A program made the position numbers and the translations under genes. The notes beneath the pieces are model-generated. The model saw only the letters and a list, made by a program, of their open reading frames with translations. It was not told where the DNA came from and did not search any database. This document shows positions 1,273 through 12,743 of a stretch of 12,743 nt of DNA, piece by piece (within the stretch, counting starts at the first letter, position 1; each line of letters begins with the position of its first letter). This DNA is from Chloroflexota bacterium. GTDB taxonomy: Bacteria; Chloroflexota; Anaerolineae; UBA4142. Where the stretch lies: positions 1-12,743 of the forward strand of contig JBBIUF010000101.1 in NCBI GenBank assembly GCA_037440365.1, written 5' to 3'.

Positions 1273-3444
1273 TTATCGATCGACTAGGGGCAAGTAGGCA
1301 TTACTGGGAACCGAGTTGCCGGCTGGCGGCATCACAATCAACGTGATCGAATTTGCCGGGAACGTTGCGTTGAATCCGCCGGGGCTGATCGCTTGGTCGG
1401 CTTGCCGCACGATGGCGTTGAGATTGGTGGCGTCGTAACGATATACTGTCGCAATGTTGAAAGGGGTGAACCCAATTAACGCGATGTTGCTCGTGAGTGC
1501 GCCATTTGTTTTATTGATGACGATGAGGGTGAGTGCGCTATCGCGTGATCTCTGCGCGGCATAAATCGCGAGTTGACCTTGATCGGTGCTATTGGCGCGA
1601 ACGCTGGTTTCGCCGAACGCGCCGCCTGCGCCGTCATAGTTGCGAAACATGCGAAATGCGAATGCGCCGGGTTGCGCGGCGGTTGGTGGATCCCACAGCG
1701 CGGCGAGGTCAACGCCTTCGCGTCCCAGGATGCCAAGGATGTCGGCTTGCGCGAGTGCGCCGTTGATGTGATCGAGCGCGCCCCAGTTGTATTCGCCGAG
1801 TGCAATTTTCGTGCCGGGGTAATTGGTGTTCACCCAATCGCGCATGCGCGGAATCAAACGAACGTAGGGACCTTCGGCGGTTTGCGCAATCCAGCTTTCA
1901 TCGGCATAGGTTGGATCCCATAAAGCGCGGGTTGAGCGCAAACGCAATGCTTGCGTCGTTGCGTCACCTGCTGGCGCAAGCGCGATCCCATTCGCTTGCG
2001 GATAAAAATGGATGTCGAGATAATCCAAGATGCGTGTATGATTAGTTTGCTCATACGCGCGCATTTGTTGCAGATACCAATCGAGAAACGGCGTGTTGCC
2101 GTGCGCAAGCCGATCCGAGTTGTTGGTAGCATTATCGAGTGCGGAATAAAAATAGGCTGACCAACCCCATAGTACGGGACCAAGAATTTTTGCGTTTGGA
2201 TCAATGGTCTTGATCGCGGCGGCATACTGATCCGTGCGATCCCGGATTTCGTCATAGCTGGTTGGGTTTGGATGCACATCGCGGTGCGATGAATTCCACA
2301 GCATCGGTTCGTTATCGAGATTGTAAAATTGTACGCCGCCATTGGTCGCGTTGCCGTAATTGCCAATCAGGTGGCGCATCCAATCTTGCGCGAACGCGGG
2401 CGTGATCGCCACGCTGGTGTCAGTCGGATCGTTGCCGGTGATCAGTGTCTTGCCATCCGGACGTATCCCATTTCCACAATCGGTTTGATAAGGATCCGTG
2501 CTTTGCTGTGCGCCATATTTCGCCACGCTAAAACCACACGCCACCGCCCGCGCTTTCGGTGTCCAACCGATCAGCGGAATCGTCAACAAGGTTTGCGAAC
2601 CAGTGCGCCGATTTTGCTCGACGAATTGATCCGACGCCGAGCCATTCGGCAAGAGTTCAGGATGCGCGTTCGCGTTCGGGATGTTTTCAAAGTACCAATC
2701 AAACGCGCGATTGTTGGTGTCGTTTTGCCAATTGTACCGCGTCTCGGCGTTCCCGCCCCGACGATTGATCGGCAAGCGCAATTCCGCCGCGAGTGATTCG
2801 CTTGCCCAGTTCATGCCATAGATGTACGGACTGATCGCATGGCGATCCAGCGCGGCGTTCACGCTCAACGCGAGACCTGGTTCAGGTGTTGGCGTTGGCG
2901 CGCCGGCGCCGATGAACGCAATATCGTCGAGATAAAACGTTGCCGGTGGATTTGCTGACCAATTTTGCCAAACGAGCAAGGTTGCTTGGCGTGGACTCAA
3001 CGCGGTCAACGACACGTTCACCTGGACCCAGGTGTTGGCGGTCGCCGTGATTATTTGGCTAGTGCTGGTGACGCCGTTAAAAACTTGAACCTGAATCACT
3101 TGACCACCCGTTGTGCCGCCGTGAATCCAAAATTGCAGGGTATCATAGCCGACCAGACTCTGTGCGGTGTTGCGCCCGAATTGTAAACCGCTCCAGCCTT
3201 TGGTAGACGTTACGGCCATGGATTGCGCGCCGGTGTGAACGGGCGTCGTATTATTCAGTTTGACGGTTGTGTCCCACGACCAATCACCCCAGCCCGCGGC
3301 GAGTGCATCGTCGAAGATTGGCAGAGTGGCAAGCGCGGCGCGAGCCTGGGTTGGCATGTGTGCCGAGATTGAGATCGCGCTGGCGCGCATCAGCGCAATC
3401 AGCATGACGATGCCCGCCGCGAGTAAATGCAAGCGCTTGCTCAT
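1273..3444 (-). CDS. secreted glycoside hydrolase, GH44-like catalytic domain with N-terminal CBM-like beta-sandwich, Pro/Thr linker and C-terminal beta-sandwich
   Basis: 723 aa from ATG 3444. GGGAGG lies 4 nt upstream, and the upstream ATG 3459 would overlap this RBS. N-terminal signal peptide MSKRLHLLAAGIVMLIALMRASA. A CBM-like segment (WGDWSWDT...FYLDDIAF) is followed by the linker GAGAPTPTPEPG. Catalytic-domain motifs: RRGGNAETRYNW, YNLDNEPMLWNSSHRDVHP (clan GH-A NEP acid/base, GH44-like) and ALGEYNWG (candidate nucleophile). Confidence 0.7.
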   Translation of the reverse strand: MSKRLHLLAAGIVMLIALMRASAISISAHMPTQARAALATLPIFDDALAAGWGDWSWDTTVKLNNTTPVHTGAQSMAVTSTKGWSGLQFGRNTAQSLVGYDTLQFWIHGGTTGGQVIQVQVFNGVTSTSQIITATANTWVQVNVSLTALSPRQATLLVWQNWSANPPATFYLDDIAFIGAGAPTPTPEPGLALSVNAALDRHAISPYIYGMNWASESLAAELRLPINRRGGNAETRYNWQNDTNNRAFDWYFENIPNANAHPELLPNGSASDQFVEQNRRTGSQTLLTIPLIGWTPKARAVACGFSVAKYGAQQSTDPYQTDCGNGIRPDGKTLITGNDPTDTSVAITPAFAQDWMRHLIGNYGNATNGGVQFYNLDNEPMLWNSSHRDVHPNPTSYDEIRDRTDQYAAAIKTIDPNAKILGPVLWGWSAYFYSALDNATNNSDRLAHGNTPFLDWYLQQMRAYEQTNHTRILDYLDIHFYPQANGIALAPAGDATTQALRLRSTRALWDPTYADESWIAQTAEGPYVRLIPRMRDWVNTNYPGTKIALGEYNWGALDHINGALAQADILGILGREGVDLAALWDPPTAAQPGAFAFRMFRNYDGAGGAFGETSVRANSTDQGQLAIYAAQRSRDSALTLIVINKTNGALTSNIALIGFTPFNIATVYRYDATNLNAIVRQADQAISPGGFNATFPANSITLIVMPPAGNSVPSNAYLPLVDR

Positions 3445-3902
3445 GATTCCTCCCAGCATTGCAATTCGATCACATTGCCTTCTGGATCAGTCACGTAAAC
3501 AAAATGAATCTCGCCTGCGCCGGGGATGTTGGTTGCAATGGTTGCGCCGACCAGCCGACCACCCGCCTCAAGCACGGCATCACGCGCCGCGTCCACGTCA
3601 GCTACCGCGAACGCAATGTGCGTGAACCCAGGACGGTTGACGGCGAGTTCGCCACGCGGCAATTCCGCGTCATACTGGAAAATTTCGAGCGTGGGTCCGG
3701 CGTTGCCATAGCCAGGCAAACGCAAATGCGCGCCGCGAATGTGTGCGTGCGGTAAACTCGTGGCGGCGTCCAGCCACGCGCCGGATAAATCGCGTTCGGG
3801 TGGAACCAGGACACAGCCGAAGACGTTCGTATAAAACGCGGCGAGCCGTTTCCAATCGTGCGCGATCAAGTTGGTGTGTGCATATTTCGCGTCCAGTGTC
3901 AT
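3441..3902 (-). CDS. VOC family protein (glyoxalase/bleomycin-resistance/dioxygenase fold)
   Basis: 153 aa. GFTHIAFAVADVDAARDAVLEAGG and DPEGNVIEL are typical of the VOC beta-alpha-beta-beta-beta module. Its stop overlaps the hydrolase start as ATGA at 3441-3444. Confidence 0.8.
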   Translation of the reverse strand: MTLDAKYAHTNLIAHDWKRLAAFYTNVFGCVLVPPERDLSGAWLDAATSLPHAHIRGAHLRLPGYGNAGPTLEIFQYDAELPRGELAVNRPGFTHIAFAVADVDAARDAVLEAGGRLVGATIATNIPGAGEIHFVYVTDPEGNVIELQCWEES

Positions 3903-4000: not shown

Positions 4001-4029
4001 TTGCCGCGAATCAAGACTAAACGTATAAT
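4001..4029 (+). promoter_or_regulatory. sigma70-like promoter for the regulator gene (TTGCCG -35, 17-nt spacer, TATAAT -10)
   Basis: TTGCCG at 4001-4006 and a perfect TATAAT at 4024-4029, separated by 17 nt. The predicted TSS is near 4036, giving a very short leader with GAGGTG (4041-4046) ahead of ATG 4050. Confidence 0.45.
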
Positions 4030-4049
4030 TCAGCCCACGTGAGGTGAAC

Positions 4050-5381
4050 ATGACATTGCTTTCGACACTCATTGGTCGGCAAGCGGATTTGGACGCGGTG
4101 CGGCGTATTGCACTGGGCGGCGCAAGTGTTTCGCTCATTGGCATCAGCAACCTGGGTAAGACAGCGTTTTTGCGCCAATTGTGCAATGAGCAATCTTCCC
4201 ATGGCCCATTTGTCTATGTGGATTGCAATCAAATGGGCGAGCGCACCCTGCGCGCGTTTCTCACGACCACCTGGCACGCGCTTGCCAATTTGCTCGAAGC
4301 GCGCAAGCCGGAGTGGGGCGCGCGCGCTCACGCGCTCTATGATGAGATGATCCATGCGCCCAGCGCGGAATCGGTGGCATTGCATTTTGCGCAGGGATTT
4401 GAATTTGCGTTCGAGCTGATTGCGCACCCCATTGTTTTTTGTTTTGATGAATTCGACGAAGTGTATCGCCATCTTGAGCCGCAAACTTTTTTGAACCTGC
4501 GCGCGCTCAACGATCGCTATGCGGGCGCGCTCGCCTATATTGCCGCGACGGAGCGTGAACTGGCGCGGCTGACCGAATCGCGCGAGCAAGGCGAATTTCT
4601 CGAATTGCTTGCGCCGCACAGTTATTATTTGCATCCGATGGAATCCGATGACACGCGCAAGTTTTGTGCGGCGTTTGCCGCGCGCGAAGGCGTCACGTTC
4701 AGTGCGGCGGATTTTGCGTTTGTGCGCGACAACGCCGATGGTCATCCGGGTCTTGCGCTCGCGGTCTGTTATGCGCTCGGCGCGGCGACGGGCGCGCCAG
4801 TGCGCGGCACGCCGAGCGATCGCGTGATTCAGCAACTCGTTCAGCAAAATTTGGCGAGCGATGGTAACGTGCAGAGCGAGTGCGCAAAAATCTGGGACGA
4901 TCTCGATGATGCCGAGCGTGAGGTATTGTTACATTTTTCGCGCAATCCATCGGTCGGGAATGGCGGCGCGCAAAAAAGTTTGCGCGCAAAATTTCTAGTG
5001 CGCGATGGCGCGGATGGCACGGAAATTTTTTCGCGCTTGTTTGCCGAGTATGTGCGGCGTCAACAATTTACGCAACAGCCGAATGAGCGCGGTGTCGCGG
5101 TGGACGCGGATGCAGGTACCGTGTGGGTGGATGGCACAACCATTGGCGATCTAACTGATCTCGAATATCGTTTGCTCTTGTTTTTGTATGGGCGCCTGGA
5201 TCGCGTGTGTGACAAGTATACGATCGTGCAATCGGTGTGGGGCGAAGAGTACGTGGACAAGGTAGACGACGCGCGCATTGAAAAACTCGTCAGCCGCGTG
5301 CGCGCTAAAATCGAAACCGATCCAGCGCGTCCGCGTTATTTGGTGAGCGTGCGCGGACGCGGGTACAAGTTGGTGCGATAA
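4050..5381 (+). CDS. transcriptional regulator: N-terminal P-loop NTPase (AAA_16/STAND-like) fused to C-terminal OmpR/PhoB-type winged-helix DNA-binding domain
   Basis: Walker A GISNLGKTAF preceded by GRQADLDAV (AAA_16 pattern). Walker B IVFCFDEFDE. C-terminal LTDLEYRLLLFLYGRLDRVCDKYTIVQSVWGEE...ARIEKLVSRVRAKIE...RPRYLVSVRGRGYKLV matches the trans_reg_C winged helix. No receiver domain. Alternative GTG start at 4044. Confidence 0.75.
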   Translation: MTLLSTLIGRQADLDAVRRIALGGASVSLIGISNLGKTAFLRQLCNEQSSHGPFVYVDCNQMGERTLRAFLTTTWHALANLLEARKPEWGARAHALYDEMIHAPSAESVALHFAQGFEFAFELIAHPIVFCFDEFDEVYRHLEPQTFLNLRALNDRYAGALAYIAATERELARLTESREQGEFLELLAPHSYYLHPMESDDTRKFCAAFAAREGVTFSAADFAFVRDNADGHPGLALAVCYALGAATGAPVRGTPSDRVIQQLVQQNLASDGNVQSECAKIWDDLDDAEREVLLHFSRNPSVGNGGAQKSLRAKFLVRDGADGTEIFSRLFAEYVRRQQFTQQPNERGVAVDADAGTVWVDGTTIGDLTDLEYRLLLFLYGRLDRVCDKYTIVQSVWGEEYVDKVDDARIEKLVSRVRAKIETDPARPRYLVSVRGRGYKLVR

Positions 5382-5385
5382 AAAT

Positions 5386-5420
5386 TGGACGTGGACTAAC
5401 GCGGACAAACACGGATAAAA
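5386..5420. repeat. three to four tandem about 10-bp direct repeats (TTGGAC / GTGGACTAAC / GCGGACAAAC / ACGGATAAAA)
   Basis: GGAC/GGAT cores at 5387, 5393, 5403 and 5413 with 10-bp periodicity, each followed by A-rich spacers. The array begins 5 nt after the regulator stop (TAA 5379-5381). Confidence 0.5.
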
Positions 5421-5498
5421 CAAACGATGATTGATCAAGCGTTGCCCGCAAAATACCTTCCTTTTTTGGAACGTGTGCTCACTTGACCACGATTGCAA

Positions 5499-5555
5499 CA
5501 TTCGATTGATGTGATGAGGCTAGATCGTTTGCCCGCATTCGGTTTGATTCGAATC
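5499..5555. promoter_or_regulatory. direct repeats CATTCG-RTT(T)GAT (5499-5510 and 5536-5549) and a perfect 10-bp palindrome GATTCGAATC (5546-5555) upstream of pspA
   Basis: Read directly from the sequence. These are candidate operator elements. A TTGACC -35-like hexamer lies at 5483-5488. Confidence 0.3.
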
Positions 5556-5611
5556 CAAATCGGATGTTCAGGCGCAGTTCGTCAGAGAAATGTCAGGATT
5601 TTTAGCTCGTC

Positions 5612-5623
5612 TTGCGGTATAGT
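5612..5623 (+). promoter_or_regulatory. candidate -10 element (TATAGT) for pspA operon
   Basis: TATAGT at 5618-5623, 62 nt upstream of ATG 5686. No convincing -35 at 17 +/- 1 nt. An A/T-rich stretch lies upstream. Confidence 0.25.
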
Positions 5624-5685
5624 ATTGCCAACATCAGTTCAGAGCGCGCTACGCGCATCTCGAACCACACTTTTGGAGGATCACC

Positions 5686-6363
5686 ATGGCTAGCTTACTT
5701 GAAAAAGTTCAAACGTTGATTGCGGCAAACATGCACGCGCTTGTGGATCAGGCGCTCAAGGCGAATTCACTCGCCGTGATTGACGAGTACATTCGCCAGG
5801 TCGAAAACAATCTGGACAATCTCGAAGAGGCGACGGCGACGATTGGTGGCGAGGTGAAAACACTCAATCGCAAGTACGCCGATTATGCCGACAAATCGGC
5901 GGAACTTGACCGCAACATTGACTTGATGCTGAAAGAAGGCAAGGAAGATTTGGCGGTTGCCGCGCAGAGCAAATTGAATTCGATGCAACGATTGGCGGAA
6001 ACGTACAAAGCGCAGTATGATCGTCAGCAAGCCGAGTATCAGAATTTGCTCAATGCAAAATTGAAACTCGAAGCAAAACTCACGACTGTCAAGCAAGAGC
6101 GCGAAGAAATGCAAGCGTTGCTGGATTTAGCCAAGTCGAAAGAGCTGACGGCGAAGACGATGCAATCGCTCGACAACTTGATGGGCTCGGGTGATCAAGA
6201 TGTCGCGCGCATGGCGGATAGCATCCGCGCTCGCCTTGACAAAGCGTCCGCACGTTCCGAGATGCAATCGTCGCGGCTCGACAACCAGATGGATGACCTG
6301 CTCGAACGTCACACACTGGACACGCAGTTGGCGGAACGCAAACAAAAGCTCGGCTTGGCATAA
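5686..6363 (+). CDS. pspA: PspA/IM30/Vipp1 family (ESCRT-III-like) membrane-stress protein
   Basis: 225 aa, GGAGGA RBS 6 nt upstream. The N-terminus [23 protein letters not shown] aligns with PspA [37 protein letters not shown] matches KEREDLARAALIEK. The whole protein is predicted coiled-coil. Confidence 0.85.
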   Translation: [225 protein letters not shown]

Positions 6364-6371
6364 CGCTAGAA

Positions 6372-6417
6372 GGCAGAAAGCACAAAGCAGTCAGCAGACT
6401 GCCGAGTGCTTTCTGCC
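6372..6417 (+). promoter_or_regulatory. strong nested stem-loop immediately after pspA stop (possible partial terminator, attenuator or mRNA-stabilising element)
   Basis: Outer perfect 12-bp stem GGCAGAAAGCAC (6372-6383) pairs with GTGCTTTCTGCC (6406-6417). Inner 6-bp stem GCAGTC (6387-6392) pairs with GACTGC (6397-6402), with loop AGCA. No U-tract follows, so read-through into the downstream genes is expected. Confidence 0.5.
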
Positions 6418-6444
6418 GATGGCCTTCTTCTGAAGGATACTCTT

Positions 6445-7623
6445 ATGAATCGCACTCGAATCATTTTCTTTGCTGTCGTTTTGCTTGCGCTGATTATCGT
6501 CGGCGTTTCGTTTTTGGCGTCGCAACTGTCCGGGAATATCCCAAACCCAACCGCGCAACCGATCCAGGTGCGCGTGGTCAGCGCGTTGCCCATCGAACCC
6601 TGGGTGAGCGAAGCGGCGCAAAAATTCAACGCCGAAAAACACACCGAAGACGGGCGAACGATTATTATCACGGTGACGCCGATGGACAGCGTGACCGCAC
6701 TCGGCAAATGGGATCGCGGCGAGTTCAACCCGATTCCGACGGTGTGGATTCCCGACAGCCGCTATCTCGTCGAATTGGTCAACGCAACGTATAGCGCCAA
6801 GTTGGGACGCGATGTGTTCCTGACCGACGGCGAATATCGCGCGCGCCCATTGGCGACCTCGCTGTTTTCCTGGGGCATTTACGATAGCCGCTACCAGGTG
6901 TTGACCAAAAAGTTTAACACGGTGGATTGGAAAGTGATCCACGATGCGGCGACTGCCAAAGGCGGCTGGCCCGACCTGGGTGGACAATCGGCGTGGGGCT
7001 ATTTCAAATTGATTGTGCCGAATCCGCGCAAAAATGCGGCGGGTTTGCTAGCGATGGTATCTGCCGCGGGCGAGTACTATGACAAGGCGGCGATCACCAC
7101 TGAAGATGTCACGAATCCAAAATTTCAAACCTGGCTGAAAGAGTTGATGGGGTCGGTCACCGATTTCTCGTCGCTGTCGGCGTACTCGGTGGAAGACCTG
7201 GCACTGTTCGGCTATTCGGTTGGCGATGGCGGGCAATTGCTGGAAAGCGATTTGCTCGTGAACATGAACGGGATTCAAACACGCTGGGCGGATCCTCTAC
7301 GGATTGTCTATCCCAAATATCTGACCTGGTTTGATTTTCCGTTTACAACATGGATGGGACCGGAAACGAGCGCGTCGGAAAAGAATGCCGCGTTACAATT
7401 TGAAAAATTCTTGTTGACCGCGCCGATTCAAACGGCGGCGGCGGCGCGCGGTTTTCGTCCCGCGAACACGGACGTTTCGATTTCCGGTGCTGATAGCTTG
7501 TTTGTGAAATGGCAAGGACAGGGTGCGCAACCCAAAGTTGCCAGTACCGCGCGGATGCGTCCGCCGGATCGCGAGACTCTGCAAGCGTTGTTGCGTTGGT
7601 TTGATCTGAACGTGGCCAAGTGA
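6445..7623 (+). CDS. membrane-anchored extracytoplasmic substrate-binding-protein-like (SBP_bac_11-like) domain protein
   Basis: 392 aa from ATG 6445, AAGGA 8 nt upstream. The longer ORF start at 6406 lies inside the hairpin. N-terminus MNRTR plus TM helix IIFFAVVLLALIIVGVSFLA, N-in. The remainder is paralogous to the N-terminal two-thirds of the next gene, with the conserved post-TM FLASQxS. Confidence 0.65.
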   Translation: MNRTRIIFFAVVLLALIIVGVSFLASQLSGNIPNPTAQPIQVRVVSALPIEPWVSEAAQKFNAEKHTEDGRTIIITVTPMDSVTALGKWDRGEFNPIPTVWIPDSRYLVELVNATYSAKLGRDVFLTDGEYRARPLATSLFSWGIYDSRYQVLTKKFNTVDWKVIHDAATAKGGWPDLGGQSAWGYFKLIVPNPRKNAAGLLAMVSAAGEYYDKAAITTEDVTNPKFQTWLKELMGSVTDFSSLSAYSVEDLALFGYSVGDGGQLLESDLLVNMNGIQTRWADPLRIVYPKYLTWFDFPFTTWMGPETSASEKNAALQFEKFLLTAPIQTAAAARGFRPANTDVSISGADSLFVKWQGQGAQPKVASTARMRPPDRETLQALLRWFDLNVAK

Positions 7624-7631
7624 GGCGCGCA

Positions 7632-9302
7632 ATGAAACAGAAACGAAATCCCGCTTTCAATTGGGCGAATGGTTGCGCGCTCACCGCCGTCCTCGGCGTT
7701 GTGTTTGCGCTCGTTGCGGTTTTGTGCGGCGTCACATTCCTCGCGTCGCAGTTTAGTTCGCCGACCCCTGCGCCCGCGCCGTTGAATGCGAAACTTGACC
7801 TGGCTTACTCGCCGGAAAAAGACGCGCTGATGCAAGACTTGGTGGCGCGCTTTAACCAGGCGAATTACAAAACGCCGTCCGGCTTGCCAATGCAGATCGT
7901 TGCAACCAAAATGGACGCGGCAGACATAGTGGATGCGGCGCGCGCGGGCAAATTTACCGCGATTAGTCCTGACTCATCGCTGTGGCTCGCGCAAGTGGAT
8001 GCTGGGCGTGACACTCCGCTCGTGGGCGAATCCACGCGCTTTGCGGTGACGCCGATCGTGATCGCAACTTGGAACGATGTTGCGCAGTCGCTCGGCTATC
8101 CGCAGAAACCAATTGGCTGGCAGGATATATTGACCCGAGCCAAGACCGATTCGAATTTCAAATGGAGCCACCCCTCGTCGAGCACGGCGAGCGGCGTGCT
8201 GGCAACACTCGCCGAATTTTACGCGGGCGCGGGCAAGACGCGCAACCTCACGGACGATGATCTGAAAAATCGCGCGACGCTGGATTATGTTGCCGCGCTT
8301 GAAAAAACGGTGCGCTCTTACGGCGAAGGCGAACAGGCGACGATTGATCAAGTCAGCGCGCGCGGACGCACATACCTCGATGCGTTCGTGGTCTCTGAGC
8401 GCATGGTGATTTATTACAATAGCAAGTCGGCGCAAAAGTTGGTGGCGATCTACCCGGCGGAAGGCACGCTGTGGCAAGATCATCCGCTGGCATTGCTTGA
8501 GCAACCTGGGTTGACGGATGATCAGCGTTTGACCTATCGCAAGTTCCGCGATTTTCTGCTTTCGGCGCAAGTTCAGAAATTAGTGTTGCAAGCCGGGTAT
8601 CGTCCGGTGGATTTGAATTTGCGCTTGGCTGATCCTGCATCGCCGATCAAAACGGCGAATGGCGTTGATCCCGCGCAACCGCAGACGACGTTGCAAATGC
8701 CGAGCGCGGCAATTCTTGCGCAAGTGCAATCGGCGTGGTACCTCACGAAACGCGCGGCAAACATTTACCTTGTCGCCGATACATCGGGCAGTATGGCAGA
8801 CCAGGACAAGTTGAAACAAGCCCAGGACGCGCTGAACACATTTCTCGATCAAGTGCAAGGCAACCAAGATCGCGTTGGCTTGGTGCCATTTGCGAACAGC
8901 GTCTATGGCACGGTCGCGTTGACGGATGTGAGCACGCAACGCGATGCGCTCAAGCGCCAAGTTGGCGCGCTCGCGGCGAACGGGCGCACGGCGTTGTACG
9001 ATGCCGTCTCGTTTGCCTATGACGATTTGCAAAAGCGCGGCGACCGCGACCGCATCAATGCAATTGTGGTGATGACTGATGGCATTGAAAACGCTTCGAC
9101 CATTTCGCAGAGCGCGTTGATCCAAAAAATCAAGCAAGGCAATCAGCGCGGCGTGCCGGTTCTGATCTTTTGCATTGGCTATGGCAATGACGCGGATTTC
9201 AGCATCTTGAACGCGCTTGCGGATGCGACTGGCGGACAAGCGCGCCGCGCTGACCCGGAAACAATTCAAAAGCTGTATAAAATTCTTTCGACGTACTTCT
9301 AA
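7632..9302 (+). CDS. membrane-anchored extracytoplasmic SBP-like domain fused to C-terminal von Willebrand factor A (VWA) domain with complete MIDAS
   Basis: ATG 7632 with GAGG 7 nt upstream. A GTG at 7620 overlaps the previous stop as GTGA. N-terminal KQKR plus a TM helix. The SBP-like region (VAIYPAEGTLWQDHPLALL, PIVIATWNDVAQSLGY) precedes a VWA domain with MIDAS DTSGSM (DxSxS). Downstream MIDAS residues are T in GRTALYDAV and D in MTDGIEN. Confidence 0.75.
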   Translation: MKQKRNPAFNWANGCALTAVLGVVFALVAVLCGVTFLASQFSSPTPAPAPLNAKLDLAYSPEKDALMQDLVARFNQANYKTPSGLPMQIVATKMDAADIVDAARAGKFTAISPDSSLWLAQVDAGRDTPLVGESTRFAVTPIVIATWNDVAQSLGYPQKPIGWQDILTRAKTDSNFKWSHPSSSTASGVLATLAEFYAGAGKTRNLTDDDLKNRATLDYVAALEKTVRSYGEGEQATIDQVSARGRTYLDAFVVSERMVIYYNSKSAQKLVAIYPAEGTLWQDHPLALLEQPGLTDDQRLTYRKFRDFLLSAQVQKLVLQAGYRPVDLNLRLADPASPIKTANGVDPAQPQTTLQMPSAAILAQVQSAWYLTKRAANIYLVADTSGSMADQDKLKQAQDALNTFLDQVQGNQDRVGLVPFANSVYGTVALTDVSTQRDALKRQVGALAANGRTALYDAVSFAYDDLQKRGDRDRINAIVVMTDGIENASTISQSALIQKIKQGNQRGVPVLIFCIGYGNDADFSILNALADATGGQARRADPETIQKLYKILSTYF

Positions 9303-9307
9303 GTCTA

Positions 9308-9328
9308 GCGCGAGCCGCTGGCTCGCGT
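9308..9328 (+). promoter_or_regulatory. GC-rich hairpin between VWA gene and flotillin gene
   Basis: CGCGAGCC (9309-9316) pairs with GGCTCGCG (9320-9327), 3-nt loop, no U-tract. It lies between TAA 9300-9302 and the AAGGA RBS at 9330. Confidence 0.35.
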
Positions 9329-9338
9329 AAAGGAAAAA

Positions 9339-11324
9339 ATGTCCAACCTATTAATTTCGATGATTGTCTTGGTCCTCGTCGTGCTGGTCATTGTTGCCGT
9401 ATTGATCGCGCTTTCGGGATTTCGCTTTATCCCAAACAATCGGATCGGCATCGTCGAAAAAAGAGTGAGCGGCAAAGGTTCGATTAAAGCTGGGTTTATC
9501 GCGCTCGCCGGTGAAGCGGGCTTTCAGCCGAATGTGTTGCGCGGTGGCTTGCATTACTTGATGCCGATTCAGTATGCCGTTCACGTGATGCCGTTAGTCA
9601 CGATCACCCAGGGCAAGATCGGTTACGTGTTTGCGCGTGACGGCAAGCAACTCGATGCGACCCAGGTGCTGGCGTCGAACTTGACGGTTAGTGATTTTCA
9701 AGATGTGGAAGCATTCCTCGCGAATGGGGGTCAGCGCGGTCCGCAACGCCGCATTTTGCGTGAAGGCACGTATGCGATCAACTTGTTGCAGTTCGTTGTC
9801 ATCACTGAAGAGCGCGTCTTTTCTTTGCCGCTCAACCGCGACGAAGCCGAGACGATTCGCAAAATGGCAGATGTCATTGCCGAACGGAACGGTTTCCGTC
9901 CGATCGTGATCAAAGACACGGATGATAATGTCGGCATCGTCACGGTGCATGATGGTCCGTCGCTGGCGCAAGGCGAAATCATCGCGTCAATTGTGGGTAC
10001 GACGGTGGCGAACACCGATACCTATCACAACAATTTCCAAGACGCCGATAAATTTTTGACGGCGGGCGGATCACGTGGGCGCCAGCTCCAAGTGCTCGTC
10101 GAAGGCACGTACTATATCAATCGTTTCTTTGCGACGGTCGAAATGATCAAAAAGACGATTGTCGAAGTGGGCACGGTGGGCGTCGTCGTGTCGTATACCG
10201 GTGAACAAGGCGAGGACTTGTCCGGCAAGGAATACCGGCACGGCGAGATGGTGGAAAAGGGCAAACGTGGTGTGTGGAGCGAGGCGTTGATGCCGGGCAA
10301 GTACGCGTTCAACACGTACGCCGGCAAAGTGATTATTGTGCCGACGACGAACATTATTCTGAAATGGATTCGGAATGAGGTTGGCTCGCACCGGCTCGAC
10401 GAAAACTTGTCGGAAGTGTCGCTCATTACCAAAGACGCGTTCGAGCCATCACTGCCGTTGTCGGTGGTGATTCATATTGATTATCAAAAAGCGCCGTTGG
10501 TCATTCAACGCTTTGGCGATATTAAACGGCTCGTCGAGCAAACGCTCGATCCGATGGTGTCGGCGTATTTCAAGAACATTGGGCAGACGCGCACGTTGAT
10601 TCAACTCTTGCAAGAGCGGAGTGTGATTCAACAAATTGCCAGTCAAGAAATGAAGGACAAGTTTTTGCACTATAATCTCGAACTGGAAGAAGTGCTGATC
10701 GGCACGCCGACTTCATTGGCGGGCGATCAACAGATCGAAACGATCTTGACCCAGTTGCGTTCGCGCCAAGTGGCGACCGAACAGGTTGAGACGTATGCGC
10801 GGCAAGAGACGGCCGCGGTCAAGGAACGTGAGTTGCGCGAGGCGCAATCACGCGCGCAAATGCAACAGCACATTACCGAGTCCGAGTTGAGCATCACGGT
10901 TCAATCGAACCAGGGTAAAGCCGAATATCAACGCGCGGTGCAACAAGCGGCGCAGATTCGTACGCTCGCCGAAGCGGAATCGGAAAAGGTGGCGCGCATC
11001 GGTATCGCGCAAGCGTTGGCGATTGAAGAACAAGTGCGCGCATATGGCGGACCGCAATACCAAGTTACCCAGACCGTGCTCAATCGTTTCGCCGAAGCAA
11101 TTCAACAATCGGGCGTGGATGTGGTGCCGCGTGTGTTGATCAGCGGCGGCGACGACAAGCAAGGCGGCAGTGGGAATGTGATGGAAGGTTTGCTCACGCT
11201 CTTGCTGTCGGAACGCATGGGCGTCTCGGCGACCCAGGATGCGCAACGCTCGCCGGAAGCCGAAGCCTTGCGTGAACAAATCAAGGCAAGTATGAAAGCG
11301 GAAAAGAAAGACGAAACCAAGTAG
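9339..11324 (+). CDS. flotillin-like SPFH/Band-7 family protein (FloT/YqiK-type, extended N-terminal region)
   Basis: 661 aa. N-terminal hydrophobic hairpin MSNLLISMIVLVLVVLVIVAVLIAL. SPFH region. Long Glu/Ala/Gln-rich coiled coil. C-terminal ...GIAQALAIEEQVRAYGGPQYQVTQTVLNRFAEAIQQSGVDVVPRVLISGGDDKQGGSG aligns with the B. subtilis FloT C-terminus (...ITVVDTGGSG). Confidence 0.85.
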   Translation: MSNLLISMIVLVLVVLVIVAVLIALSGFRFIPNNRIGIVEKRVSGKGSIKAGFIALAGEAGFQPNVLRGGLHYLMPIQYAVHVMPLVTITQGKIGYVFARDGKQLDATQVLASNLTVSDFQDVEAFLANGGQRGPQRRILREGTYAINLLQFVVITEERVFSLPLNRDEAETIRKMADVIAERNGFRPIVIKDTDDNVGIVTVHDGPSLAQGEIIASIVGTTVANTDTYHNNFQDADKFLTAGGSRGRQLQVLVEGTYYINRFFATVEMIKKTIVEVGTVGVVVSYTGEQGEDLSGKEYRHGEMVEKGKRGVWSEALMPGKYAFNTYAGKVIIVPTTNIILKWIRNEVGSHRLDENLSEVSLITKDAFEPSLPLSVVIHIDYQKAPLVIQRFGDIKRLVEQTLDPMVSAYFKNIGQTRTLIQLLQERSVIQQIASQEMKDKFLHYNLELEEVLIGTPTSLAGDQQIETILTQLRSRQVATEQVETYARQETAAVKERELREAQSRAQMQQHITESELSITVQSNQGKAEYQRAVQQAAQIRTLAEAESEKVARIGIAQALAIEEQVRAYGGPQYQVTQTVLNRFAEAIQQSGVDVVPRVLISGGDDKQGGSGNVMEGLLTLLLSERMGVSATQDAQRSPEAEALREQIKASMKAEKKDETK

Positions 11325-11352
11325 TTGATTGATGCAGAGGTGCATTGGAGCG

Positions 11353-11399
11353 GAGGAGCAAGGGAGCGTCTCCTCTGCGCCTCTGCACCCTTGCTCCTC
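11353..11399 (+). promoter_or_regulatory. 12-bp-stem hairpin with repeated CCTCTGC motifs between flotillin gene and next CDS
   Basis: GAGGAGCAAGGG (11353-11364) pairs with CCCTTGCTCCTC (11388-11399). The 23-nt loop contains CCTCTGC twice (11372-11378, 11380-11386), complementary to GCAGAGG at 11333-11339. Not followed by a U-run. Confidence 0.4.
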
Positions 11400-11410
11400 T
11401 GCTGAAAATT

Positions 11411-12220
11411 ATGAAGTCACCCGACATTAGAAACCGCGCCTGGTCCGCCATTCTCGCATATGCAATTTTTCGCTGGGAGAGCGCGGCAACCATCGCGTTT
11501 ACAATTCTGCTTGCGTATTTTGTCCCGCGTCCGTTTGAGTGGTTCCAGTGGTGGTACTGGCTCGTGATCGGCTTGGTCGCCGAGTTATTGATCATTTGGA
11601 GTAGCATCGGCGATGTGAACACCGGTGCGCAAGTGGTCGCCGATATGTTTCGGCAGGAATTTAATCCTGGGGCGATCAAGAGCCAAAAGTATCGCGCTCT
11701 GGTCGAACGCGCGCTCGACTATCGCACGCGCATCGAAGAGATGATTCGCAAAAGCGAAGCTGGGATCTTGCGCGATCACTTGCAATCGTCCACGGCGGGC
11801 ATTTCGGATTGGATCGCGCAAATTTTTCGCCTGGCGCAACGGCTCGATGCGTTCGAGAGTGACACGGTGATCAAACAGGATGCCGCCGCCACGCCGCGCG
11901 AAATCGCCGACTTGACGACGCGCGTGCAACGCGAGCATGATGCGACAGTGCGCGCGCAAGCGCAGCGCACGCTCGATTCCAAAAAAGAACAATTGGCGAA
12001 TATTGAAAAATTGACGAACACGATGGAAAACGCCGATTTGCAACTCGACGCGACGCTCACGGCGTTGGGCACGGTCTATTCGCAGTTGATGTTGATTCAC
12101 TCAAAAGATGATATTGAGGATAGTCGATCGCAACGATTGCAGAGTGACATTGCAGAGCAGATTTCGCAGTTGAATGATTTGCAGGGATCAATGGACGAGG
12201 TGTATCAACGTAAAACCTGA
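11411..12220 (+). CDS. membrane-anchored coiled-coil protein (two N-terminal TM helices plus about 190-aa cytoplasmic helical domain); family unassigned, XpaC-like architecture
   Basis: ATG 11411 (MKSPDIRNR...) with no clear SD. The alternative TTG 11345 would add a 22-aa extension encoded by the hairpin. TM helices ATIAFTILLAYFVPRPF and WWYWLVIGLVAELLIIWSSI. The rest is a charged, Q/E/R-rich helical region. Stop TGA at 12218-12220. Confidence 0.5.
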   Translation: MKSPDIRNRAWSAILAYAIFRWESAATIAFTILLAYFVPRPFEWFQWWYWLVIGLVAELLIIWSSIGDVNTGAQVVADMFRQEFNPGAIKSQKYRALVERALDYRTRIEEMIRKSEAGILRDHLQSSTAGISDWIAQIFRLAQRLDAFESDTVIKQDAAATPREIADLTTRVQREHDATVRAQAQRTLDSKKEQLANIEKLTNTMENADLQLDATLTALGTVYSQLMLIHSKDDIEDSRSQRLQSDIAEQISQLNDLQGSMDEVYQRKT

Positions 12221-12261: not shown

Positions 12262-12743
12262 ATGAGCGGTAAAATTTTGGTCACGTATGCAAGTAAAACC
12301 GGATCGACAGCTGGGGTTGCCGAAGCGATTGGCAAAACTCTAGCCGAAGGCGGCGCGCAGGTGGATGTTCTGCCAATGCAAGCGGTAAACGATCTAGATT
12401 CGTACGGTGCGGTGGTGGCGGGGAGCGCGATCCGTGATCGCAAGTGGTTGCCCGAGGCGATGCAATTTGTGCGGACGCATCAAGCGACGTTGGCGCGCAA
12501 ACCATTCGCCACGTTTTTGGTCTGCATGACGCTGGCGATGCCGAACGGAGAAAAGTACCGTGATTTTGTAGTAGACTTGGCGCAACCTGTGCGCGCGCTG
12601 GTCAAACCCGTGCGCGAAGGTCAATTTGCGGGCGCGCTCGACATTAGCAAATTATCGTCGTGGGGTGATCGGCTGAAATTTCGGATGAGCGTGGCGCTGG
12701 GCGTTTGGAAGGAAGGCGATCACCGTGATTGGAATGCGATTCG
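12262..12743 (+). CDS. flavodoxin-like fold protein (Flavodoxin_5/HemG-like), 3'-truncated by window edge
   Basis: Manual translation of frame 1 from ATG 12262 is open to the window end. It reads MSGKILVTYASKTGSTAGVAEAIGKTL..., the flavodoxin FMN-binding loop pattern. GDHRDWNAI near the end is typical of this subfamily. The ORF is absent from the supplied track because no stop falls inside the window. Confidence 0.65.
   Translation, partial: MSGKILVTYASKTGSTAGVAEAIGKTLAEGGAQVDVLPMQAVNDLDSYGAVVAGSAIRDRKWLPEAMQFVRTHQATLARKPFATFLVCMTLAMPNGEKYRDFVVDLAQPVRALVKPVREGQFAGALDISKLSSWGDRLKFRMSVALGVWKEGDHRDWNAI

Follow-up and report, generated by a model that had tools for sequence, protein, structure and literature searches.

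A candidate Psp-type envelope-stress module of Chloroflexota that places solute-binding-like and VWA membrane proteins beside PspA

PspA and Vipp1 are bacterial relatives of ESCRT-III, and the control of where and when they act is understood in few lineages (PspBC/PspF, LiaFSR/LiaI and ClgR/PspM). A contig of 12,743 nucleotides from a Chloroflexota bacterium (GenBank assembly GCA_037440365.1, contig JBBIUF010000101.1; the whole stretch is called the window below) carries pspA at the head of a gene string that an earlier note had described as a PspA-flotillin operon expanded by extracytoplasmic proteins. The locus raises the question of which neighbours belong with PspA in this phylum, and of what they might do together. 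Here we report that the conserved unit consists of PspA, two outward-facing membrane proteins resembling solute-binding proteins (SBP), one of which carries a VWA domain with a metal ion-dependent adhesion site (MIDAS), and a new protein with two transmembrane (TM) helices, usually accompanied by an upstream regulator and a DNA site. The flotillin does not belong to it. We lean, by a small measure, towards reading this unit as a lineage-specific Psp-type envelope-stress module of Chloroflexota, found in Anaerolineae, Ardenticatenia, Caldilineae and Thermoflexales, which may work by the mechanism set out below.

Six co-directional genes on the + strand span 4044-12220, as judged from the open reading frames (ORFs) and their Pfam and NCBIfam domains: the regulator, pspA, the SBP-like gene sbp1, the SBP-VWA gene sbpvwa, the flotillin-like gene and the 2-TM gene, here called cc2tm. 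The tight spacing claimed for the last five is borne out when the gaps are recomputed with starts backed by orthologue alignments (ATG 6445, ATG 7632 and ATG 11411): the intergenic distances are 81, 8, 36 and 86 bp, and a 4-bp overlap replaces the 8-bp gap if GTG 7620 is used as the start. Profile searches likewise uphold the domains named for them, namely PspA_IM30, an SBP_bac_11-like domain, SBP_bac_11 with a VWA domain and complete MIDAS, and Band_7.

The first of the five (5686-6363, +), whose ATG is preceded by GGAGGA, encodes an ESCRT-III-like member of the PspA/IM30/Vipp1 family (Pfam PF04012, 63.3 bits against a cut-off of 33.9, profile positions 2-216 of 220). A profile of its orthologues matches solved PspA and Vipp1 chains over their full length at about 1e-13, and the protein has no TM segment by hydrophobicity, consistent with a cytoplasmic location. 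The NCBIfam equivalog models score far below their cut-offs, TIGR02977 (E. coli PspA) at 36.9 bits against 243 and LiaH at 23.1 against 380. These scores point to a family member in a distinct clade, and not to an equivalog of E. coli PspA or B. subtilis LiaH.

An alignment of SBP-VWA orthologues was used to scan one genome per GTDB species, which yielded 80 loci (these and further loci are numbered with an L below), and neighbouring genes were called by tblastn with the window proteins, counts being taken only over loci long enough to judge. All but one of the loci (79/80) carry Chloroflexota names (Anaerolineae/Anaerolineales, Ardenticatenia, Caldilineae, Thermoflexales), the remaining one (L012) being labelled Acidobacteriota, and their SBP-VWA proteins are 48-78% identical to that of the window. 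The sbp1 gene lies directly upstream of the SBP-VWA gene in 75 of 76 evaluable loci, pspA lies upstream on the same strand in 66 of 69, and cc2tm lies downstream in 69 of 71. A regulator combining AAA_16 with a winged helix-turn-helix is found upstream, on the same strand, in 40 of 60. The order pspA-sbp1-sbpvwa-cc2tm is retained in more than 95% of evaluable loci, and down to 38% identity.

This arrangement is far beyond chance, as dozens of species-level genomes repeat the string. The earlier note had held that SBP-VWA homologues never found near pspA would indicate chance adjacency; the presence of pspA upstream in 66 of 69 evaluable loci rules that explanation out. Its expectation that both pspA and flotillin would accompany the SBP-VWA gene repeatedly held for pspA and failed for flotillin, which is present in 2 of 68 evaluable loci.

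The core also survives at greater distance. In L083, where the SBP-VWA protein is 38% identical to that of the window, pspA, sbp1, the SBP-VWA gene and cc2tm follow one another (cc2tm match E 1e-30), and in L086 (41% identity) sbp1, the SBP-VWA gene and the beginning of cc2tm are seen. L083 is the most distant locus with the four-gene core, and there (L083:4330-10537) tatA, tatB and tatC stand immediately upstream of pspA, where the regulator sits elsewhere. In three loci (L063:6550-7227, L065:7871-8548 and L077:1502-2179) pspA and sbp1 are separated by another pspA paralogue, a divergent one with 36-38% identity to the PspA of the window, and ABC-2 transporter genes occupy that position in L043 and L046 only.

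Farther relatives occur in other company. In L084:8001-15316 and L085:1357-11048, TelA (PF05816, toxic anion resistance) is clustered with distant paralogues of the SBP-VWA or VWA type; some of these paralogues reach at least 1,000 aa with N-terminal extensions, and a regulator with a SARP-like BTAD domain and AAA_16 lies near the L084 cluster. These clusters may represent a parallel theme of VWA/SBP proteins placed with a membrane-stress protein. In L088:2115-8656 a distant VWA homologue adjoins a divergently transcribed Band_7 gene, a Pkinase-VWA fusion, and a regulator with FHA and Trans_reg_C domains.

The two SBP-like proteins are paralogous to one another. The sbp1 product (6406/6445-7623, +) is a single-pass membrane protein with a divergent SBP-like ectodomain, whose SBP_bac_11 score of 23.0 bits is below the Pfam cut-off of 25 yet covers the full profile (1-227 of 227); it aligns with the SBP domain of the SBP-VWA protein at an hhalign probability of 98.5% (E 2.9e-15, 321 columns), and its orthologues share 71% mean column identity. 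The sbpvwa product (7620/7632-9302, +; likely start ATG 7632) is a single-pass membrane protein with an SBP-like domain (SBP_bac_11, 51.5 bits, cut-off 25) followed by a VWA domain (PF00092, 65.2 bits). Its MIDAS residues D387-x-S389-x-S391, T457 and D487 are invariant in 13 orthologues and make up a complete predicted metal site; the SBP domain has invariant Ser/Gly-rich motifs (PDSS-W, WSHPS..ASG and YGEGE), and DHPL is a further invariant motif. In the AlphaFold2 (AF2) model built from 13 sequences, the VWA part reaches block means mostly of 83-95 in the predicted local distance difference test (pLDDT).

Against the Protein Data Bank (PDB), the VWA profile matches ITIH, TRAP, integrin I-domains and CLCA1, as well as BatB with the A6 profile. 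Among solved structures, the sbp1 and SBP-VWA family profiles gave only marginal SBP C-terminal matches or else VWA matches, with no informative SBP relative from which a ligand class could be read. Topology was predicted from hydrophobicity and the positive-inside rule. Both proteins have a K/R-rich N-terminal tail and one TM helix (in sbp1 residues 6-24, behind the tail MNRTR), and are therefore predicted to lie with the N-terminus inside and the SBP and VWA domains outside. The arrangement proposed earlier, with these domains outside and PspA and the flotillin body inside, agrees with this prediction. No ABC permease or ATPase was found by Pfam in the window and none is conserved over the 80 loci; the SBP-like proteins are therefore unlikely to be ordinary importer subunits.

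The conserved fifth partner is not the flotillin: it is cc2tm, a 269-residue 2-TM protein encoded by the last gene of the core (11345/11411-12220, +), for which no family was found in Pfam, NCBIfam or PADLOC. Its start is taken as ATG 11411, because the orthologue alignments begin at ORF residue 23. Two hydrophobic helices are predicted, with both ends inside, and about 190 residues (from about residue 70 to 269) would form an all-helical domain in the cytoplasm. The AF2 model, helical throughout, has a pLDDT of 70.5, with block means mostly of 80-90 from about residue 90. The protein has 998 homologues, of which nearly all the named ones are called "hypothetical". As a PspA/ESCRT-III homologue it was rejected, the hhalign probability being 1.7%.

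The flotillin-like protein (9339-11324, +) fits the SPFH/Band-7 family in its Band_7 match (PF01145, 52.8 bits, cut-off 23.6, residues 274-482), its N-terminal TM anchor and its C-terminal coiled-coil region. The body is predicted to lie inside because the N-terminal tail is uncharged and positive residues follow the TM helix (residues 5-23). Its relatives are labelled "flotillin family protein" or "YqiK" in the sources, and no match was found to a flotillin-specific model or to any solved chain. The best 120 relatives are all at least 75% identical, and the protein is very conserved in the phylum.

Its place in the string is local. Besides the window, it is found in L003 and L006, the two positive cases among the 68 evaluable loci, and in L010, where the contig ends inside the gene; all are close relatives. 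In most loci the slot between the SBP-VWA gene and cc2tm is empty (gaps of 5-150 bp); in L002 and L004, both closely related to the window, a PLD-like gene fills it, and in six loci a TPR protein does. Three other Chloroflexota genomes (L090-L092) carry orthologues 77-80% identical to the flotillin as solitary genes, in unrelated contexts where pspA is not close by. The framing of the locus as a PspA-flotillin operon is not sustained by this distribution, which points to a recent lineage-specific insertion in the sub-clade of the window, a local accident of gene order and not an organising partner. In proteobacteria, PLD (HKD) hydrolases and flotillins are each reported to be optional in PspA operons (PMC11237479), and for this reason the slot seems to gather membrane-lipid-related accessories.

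Within the flotillin itself, residues about 28-270 (window 9420-10150) have no Pfam match ahead of Band_7. A motif of the form G-x-RG-x5-L-x-(E/P)G-(T/K)Y-x-(I/F)N occurs three times in the protein, including one copy inside the SPFH domain. An internal SPFH duplication in the N-terminal 240 residues was considered and rejected, since only this short motif recurs and no significant alignment is obtained.

Upstream of pspA lies the regulator gene (4044-5381, +; likely start ATG 4050), whose product joins an N-terminal AAA_16 P-loop NTPase (33.8 bits, residues 9-139) to a C-terminal OmpR/PhoB-type winged helix (Trans_reg_C, 58.7 bits, residues 369-443). The C-terminus matches the DNA-binding domains of RegX3, WalR, KdpE, OmpR and PhoB in the PDB, and the Walker A (GISNLGKT) and Walker B (FCFDEFDE) motifs can be read in the translation. 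The architecture is unusual in having the AAA_16 domain in place of a receiver domain. A promoter-like site, TTGCCG-17-TATAAT (4001-4029, +), precedes the gene; it is a consensus match only (10 of 12 positions in the scan), and no GTC repeats occur at it.

Between the regulator and pspA we identified a direct-repeat candidate operator, GTCAG-N6-GTCAGGA, with an 11-bp period (5581-5598, +; GTCAGAGAAATGTCAGGA), which matches nowhere else in the window, where 0.03 matches were expected. A -10-like hexamer, TATAGT (5618-5623, +), follows 19 nt after it and 62 nt before the pspA ATG, and this distance would place the GTCAG half-sites on the -35 of the predicted pspA promoter. The same design is identical in the 14 closest loci (14/14), and a TAnnAT element occurs at equal distance from the repeats in related loci. 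Two or three GTC copies with this period (GTC-N8-GTC) lie upstream of pspA in 48 of 65 loci, and 30 of these loci have three; shuffled sequences gave a mean of 3.2 (0.05 for the three-copy form), and the reverse strand gave none. The motif forms 173 clusters in the 2.6 Mb of sequence that the loci comprise, and 50 of these clusters lie in the 0.56% located 40-260 nt upstream of pspA.

OmpR/PhoB winged helices bind direct repeats about one helical turn apart near the -35. Because the site is of the type that fits this class and the adjacent regulator carries such a domain, we infer that the two are paired, and the GTCAG repeats are probably the site of the adjacent OmpR-type regulator. The repeat motif is present in 34 of 41 loci with an adjacent regulator and in 15 of 26 without. 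In the 304-bp leader upstream of pspA nothing else notable was found among repeats, and since Rfam gave no match anywhere in the window, no structured RNA or riboswitch is assigned there. Three tandem 10-mers (CGTGGACTAA CGCGGACAAA CACGGATAAA) stand at 5390-5419, just past the regulator stop codon; they may be a general intergenic trait of these genomes, because related loci bear other short tandem oligomers in the same intergenic region.

The stop codon of pspA is followed directly by a stem-loop with a stem of 12 + 6 bp and no T-run (6372-6417, +), about 27 nt ahead of the sbp1 ATG. Its predicted RNA fold (-40.9 kcal/mol, z = -5.9) was equalled by none of 200 shuffles. Hairpins behind pspA recur in related loci with a median z of -4.0 (z < -3 in 30 of 49), and their sequence is not conserved. 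We read the hairpin less as a full terminator than as a putative attenuator or stabiliser that would give an excess of PspA over its membrane partners. Many of the hairpins in related loci are made of short tandem oligomers, for example GTGACAAGG or CAGTGAACAGT.

How does this unit compare with described Psp systems? As in E. coli PspF-PspABC(DE), the gene of an NTPase-containing putative activator stands before pspA, membrane proteins follow it, and a candidate regulator-dependent promoter lies directly upstream of pspA. Here, however, the regulator joins AAA_16 to an OmpR-type winged helix and is not a sigma-54 AAA+ enhancer-binding protein, and the membrane partners, small in E. coli, carry large SBP-like and VWA ectodomains. 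No match to PspB, PspC or Sigma54_activat was found with Pfam and NCBIfam among the scanned window proteins of at least 150 aa, a scan that did not cover small ORFs.

Other systems share other parts of the layout. The ClgR-PspA-PspM-PspN system of M. tuberculosis has the same order of regulator, PspA and lineage-restricted 2-TM protein, and cc2tm is analogous to PspM in position and architecture; PspM, which also has two TM helices, is restricted to mycobacteria and corynebacteria (PMC11237479). The likeness between cc2tm and PspM (Rv2743c) is one of architecture and position only and not a sequence comparison; moreover, ClgR has a Cro-like helix-turn-helix and the M. tuberculosis system lacks SBP or VWA proteins. 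With B. subtilis LiaIH-LiaGFSR the locus shares a PspA homologue whose induction would go through a DNA-binding protein of the response-regulator type and whose anchor would be a small membrane protein, whereas the core here lacks a histidine kinase or receiver domain and the operon lacks LiaI-LiaF-TM or Toastrack.

B. subtilis PspA-YdjGHI and the PspA/Band-7/flotillin operons (Ravi et al. 2024) resemble the window in combining PspA with an SPFH/flotillin protein and membrane proteins having extracytoplasmic parts, and some PspA-flotillin operons of proteobacteria include a PLD (HKD) hydrolase, as the slot does in L002 and L004. Unlike in PspA-YdjGHI, the flotillin is here a rare insertion, and no YdjG (zinc ribbon), YdjH (TPM) or CesT/Tir partner is present. 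A TM-anchored MIDAS-VWA domain is shared with the BatA/BatB aerotolerance proteins, YfbK and the TelA-linked VWA clusters, and BatB and a solved "aerotolerance-related membrane protein" are among the best profile matches of the SBP-VWA family. The MoxR ATPase, the TPR Bat partners and TelA are nevertheless absent here, and the N-terminal SBP-like domain and the linkage to PspA are specific to this clade.

Judged by its genes, the module would work like a Psp system while falling outside the PspFABC, Lia, ClgR-PspAMN and PspA-YdjGHI types, whose defining partners were sought and not found. Two Psp surveys (PMC11237479 and PMC9239133; main texts, and the supplement of the first) mention no VWA partner of PspA, and the sole solute-binding partner in PMC11237479 is a different, PBPB-OmpA protein in Snf7/AAA+ ABC-transporter operons. 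Apart from that protein, the surveys agree with the earlier claim that no described Psp module contains SBP-like or MIDAS-VWA domains. A targeted literature search found no link of PspA to VWA or to such an SBP partner, an absence that is not proof of absence.

We propose a mechanism in which the SBP/VWA proteins and PspA may form a trans-envelope assembly, an idea compatible with the proposal of Ravi et al. 2024 (PMC11237479) that surface proteins are coupled to membrane dynamics through PspA operons. The two SBP-like ectodomains, which are paralogues and of which one is joined to a metal-dependent VWA domain, would sense an envelope ligand or ion outside the cell and contact cc2tm inside the membrane. 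The cytoplasmic helical domain of cc2tm would then recruit or release PspA, the role played elsewhere by PspB/C, LiaI or PspM. In every Psp system known to us, PspA is accompanied by a regulator of its own and by small membrane proteins as partners. The winged-helix regulator would bind the direct repeats as a class-II-type activator and induce pspA, and the hairpin behind pspA would let PspA exceed its membrane partners in amount. E. coli PspA negatively controls PspF, and PspA may likewise restrain the regulator here. In the sub-clade of the window, the inserted flotillin, a housekeeping gene, may add a membrane-microdomain scaffold.

A stronger version is also conceivable, in which an extracellular SBP-like heterodimer bearing the MIDAS-VWA domain would read the state of the envelope and gate recruitment or polymerisation of ESCRT-III-like PspA via the 2-TM adaptor, PspA in turn controlling a STAND-like activator on the GTCAG repeats. 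Such a system would be a new class of Psp signalling; we offer it tentatively, as a possibility that we doubt.

Several observations weigh against the reading as an envelope-stress module. The proposed mechanism is drawn entirely from comparison between genomes. The SBP fold of sbp1 is suggested by a sub-threshold Pfam match and by paralogy, and the SBP part of the AF2 model of the SBP-VWA protein, from the same 13 sequences, is poor (pLDDT about 30-60). The cc2tm protein shows no detectable homology to PspA or to a known family and resembles generic helical bundles only. The regulator is missing from the neighbourhood in 20 of 60 loci, and its apparent link to the operator is correlative. SBP-VWA proteins at about 30-33% identity do not adjoin pspA (L081, in a metagenome-assembled genome of Gaiellaceae, L088 and L089). 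Finally, the hairpin could, as a terminator, separate pspA from the downstream genes; the short distance to the sbp1 ATG counters this, as it leaves no room for a separate promoter.

Four other explanations of the locus were weighed. The SBP/VWA proteins and cc2tm could build an extracytoplasmic metal-dependent adhesion or wall structure, such as a sheath or the cell-cell contacts of filamentous Chloroflexota, with PspA as a dedicated membrane protector, comparable to PspA and mislocalised secretins in enterobacteria, and with ectodomains that are not sensors. VWA-MIDAS domains are typically protein-protein adhesion modules, and the closest relatives of known structure are ITIH, TRAP, integrin I-domains and BatB; the unusual conservation of sbp1 (71% mean column identity) is what would be expected of a structural partner; PspA relieves export stress, and tatABC lies directly upstream of pspA in L083. 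We nonetheless think this explanation unlikely, as a dedicated regulator and a predicted operator are placed on pspA and not on the membrane genes, which suits a stress-inducible effector, and the surroundings of the core in the 80 loci show no conservation of additional genes for structure, secretion or sortases. Quite unlikely, in our judgement, is a module for oxyanion or metal stress, in which SBP_bac_11-like domains would bind an ion as ModA, CysP and FbpA-type proteins do and a toxic ion would be detected or buffered at the membrane, with PspA in the place of TelA. The Pfam family matched is indeed SBP_bac_11, the invariant Ser/Gly-rich motifs of the SBP domain show a pattern seen among oxyanion binders, and SBP-VWA or VWA paralogues adjoin TelA (PF05816) in L084 and L085. 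That link comes, however, from two distant loci only; the modelled SBP part is too poor for a ligand pocket to be examined, profile searches of solved structures gave no informative SBP relative, and the string contains no conserved gene for transport or efflux.

Monoderm-type bacteria commonly have SBPs that are anchored in the membrane, and the SBP-like proteins could be subunits of an ABC importer encoded elsewhere that happen to stand beside pspA with no shared function, as the ABC-2 genes between pspA and sbp1 in L043 and L046 and the Peripla_BP_6 genes after the core in L083 and L085 might suggest. A gene order that holds in over 95% of evaluable loci, to identities as low as 38%, with no conserved permease or ATPase, the tight gaps (8 bp, or a 4-bp overlap) and the MIDAS-VWA fusion, which is not a trait of importer SBPs, make this very unlikely, and we reject the plain ABC-transporter reading on the comparative data. 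An integral flotillin that recruits PspA, with the SBP/VWA genes as add-ons, is hardly credible. Links between PspA and Band-7 proteins are documented in B. subtilis YdjI (PMC9239133) and in Band-7 operons (PMC11237479), and the flotillin lies within the operon in the window, L003, L006 and L010; against this, it is absent in 66 of the 68 evaluable loci, the slot there being vacant or taken by PLD-like or TPR genes, and its orthologues in L090-L092 are solitary. As a description of the conserved unit this explanation is refuted, and a functional role of the flotillin in the sub-clade could still exist.

The remaining genes of the window are unrelated to the module. They include a PD-(D/E)XK nuclease-like ORF (21-641, +), a secreted GH44 glycoside hydrolase (1273-3459, -; 267 bits), a glyoxalase-family protein (3441-3902, -), which at its 3' end shares 19 bp with the start of GH44, and a flavodoxin-domain protein (12262-12743, +) that continues past the window end; none of the four is kept beside the module in related loci. 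A 180-aa multi-TM ORF (708-1250, -) gave sub-threshold LiaI-LiaF-like TM matches of 22.1 (LiaI-LiaF-like_TM1) and 19.8 bits against a cut-off of 27, and no homologue of it occurs in any of the 80 related loci. An anti-phage defence reading was also rejected, PADLOC giving only coiled-coil noise for PspA (E 2.5e-4 or weaker) and no match for the other proteins.

The envelope-stress reading, to which we return, suggests that a widespread and poorly studied phylum has its own set of PspA partners, including two new ectodomain proteins that would offer a plausible pocket for a ligand and a metal-dependent site for adhesion. New here are a family of putative 2-TM adaptors with about 1,000 homologues and a non-canonical regulator with a recognisable candidate operator, and the adjacency of the flotillin is corrected as a tempting over-reading. 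How an extracytoplasmic cue reaches an ESCRT-III-like membrane-repair protein becomes testable, with the operator, the regulator and the MIDAS residues as handles. Should the stronger version of the mechanism be true, the module would provide a complete outside-to-inside sensory pathway for an ESCRT-III protein, made of parts not seen in any described Psp system.

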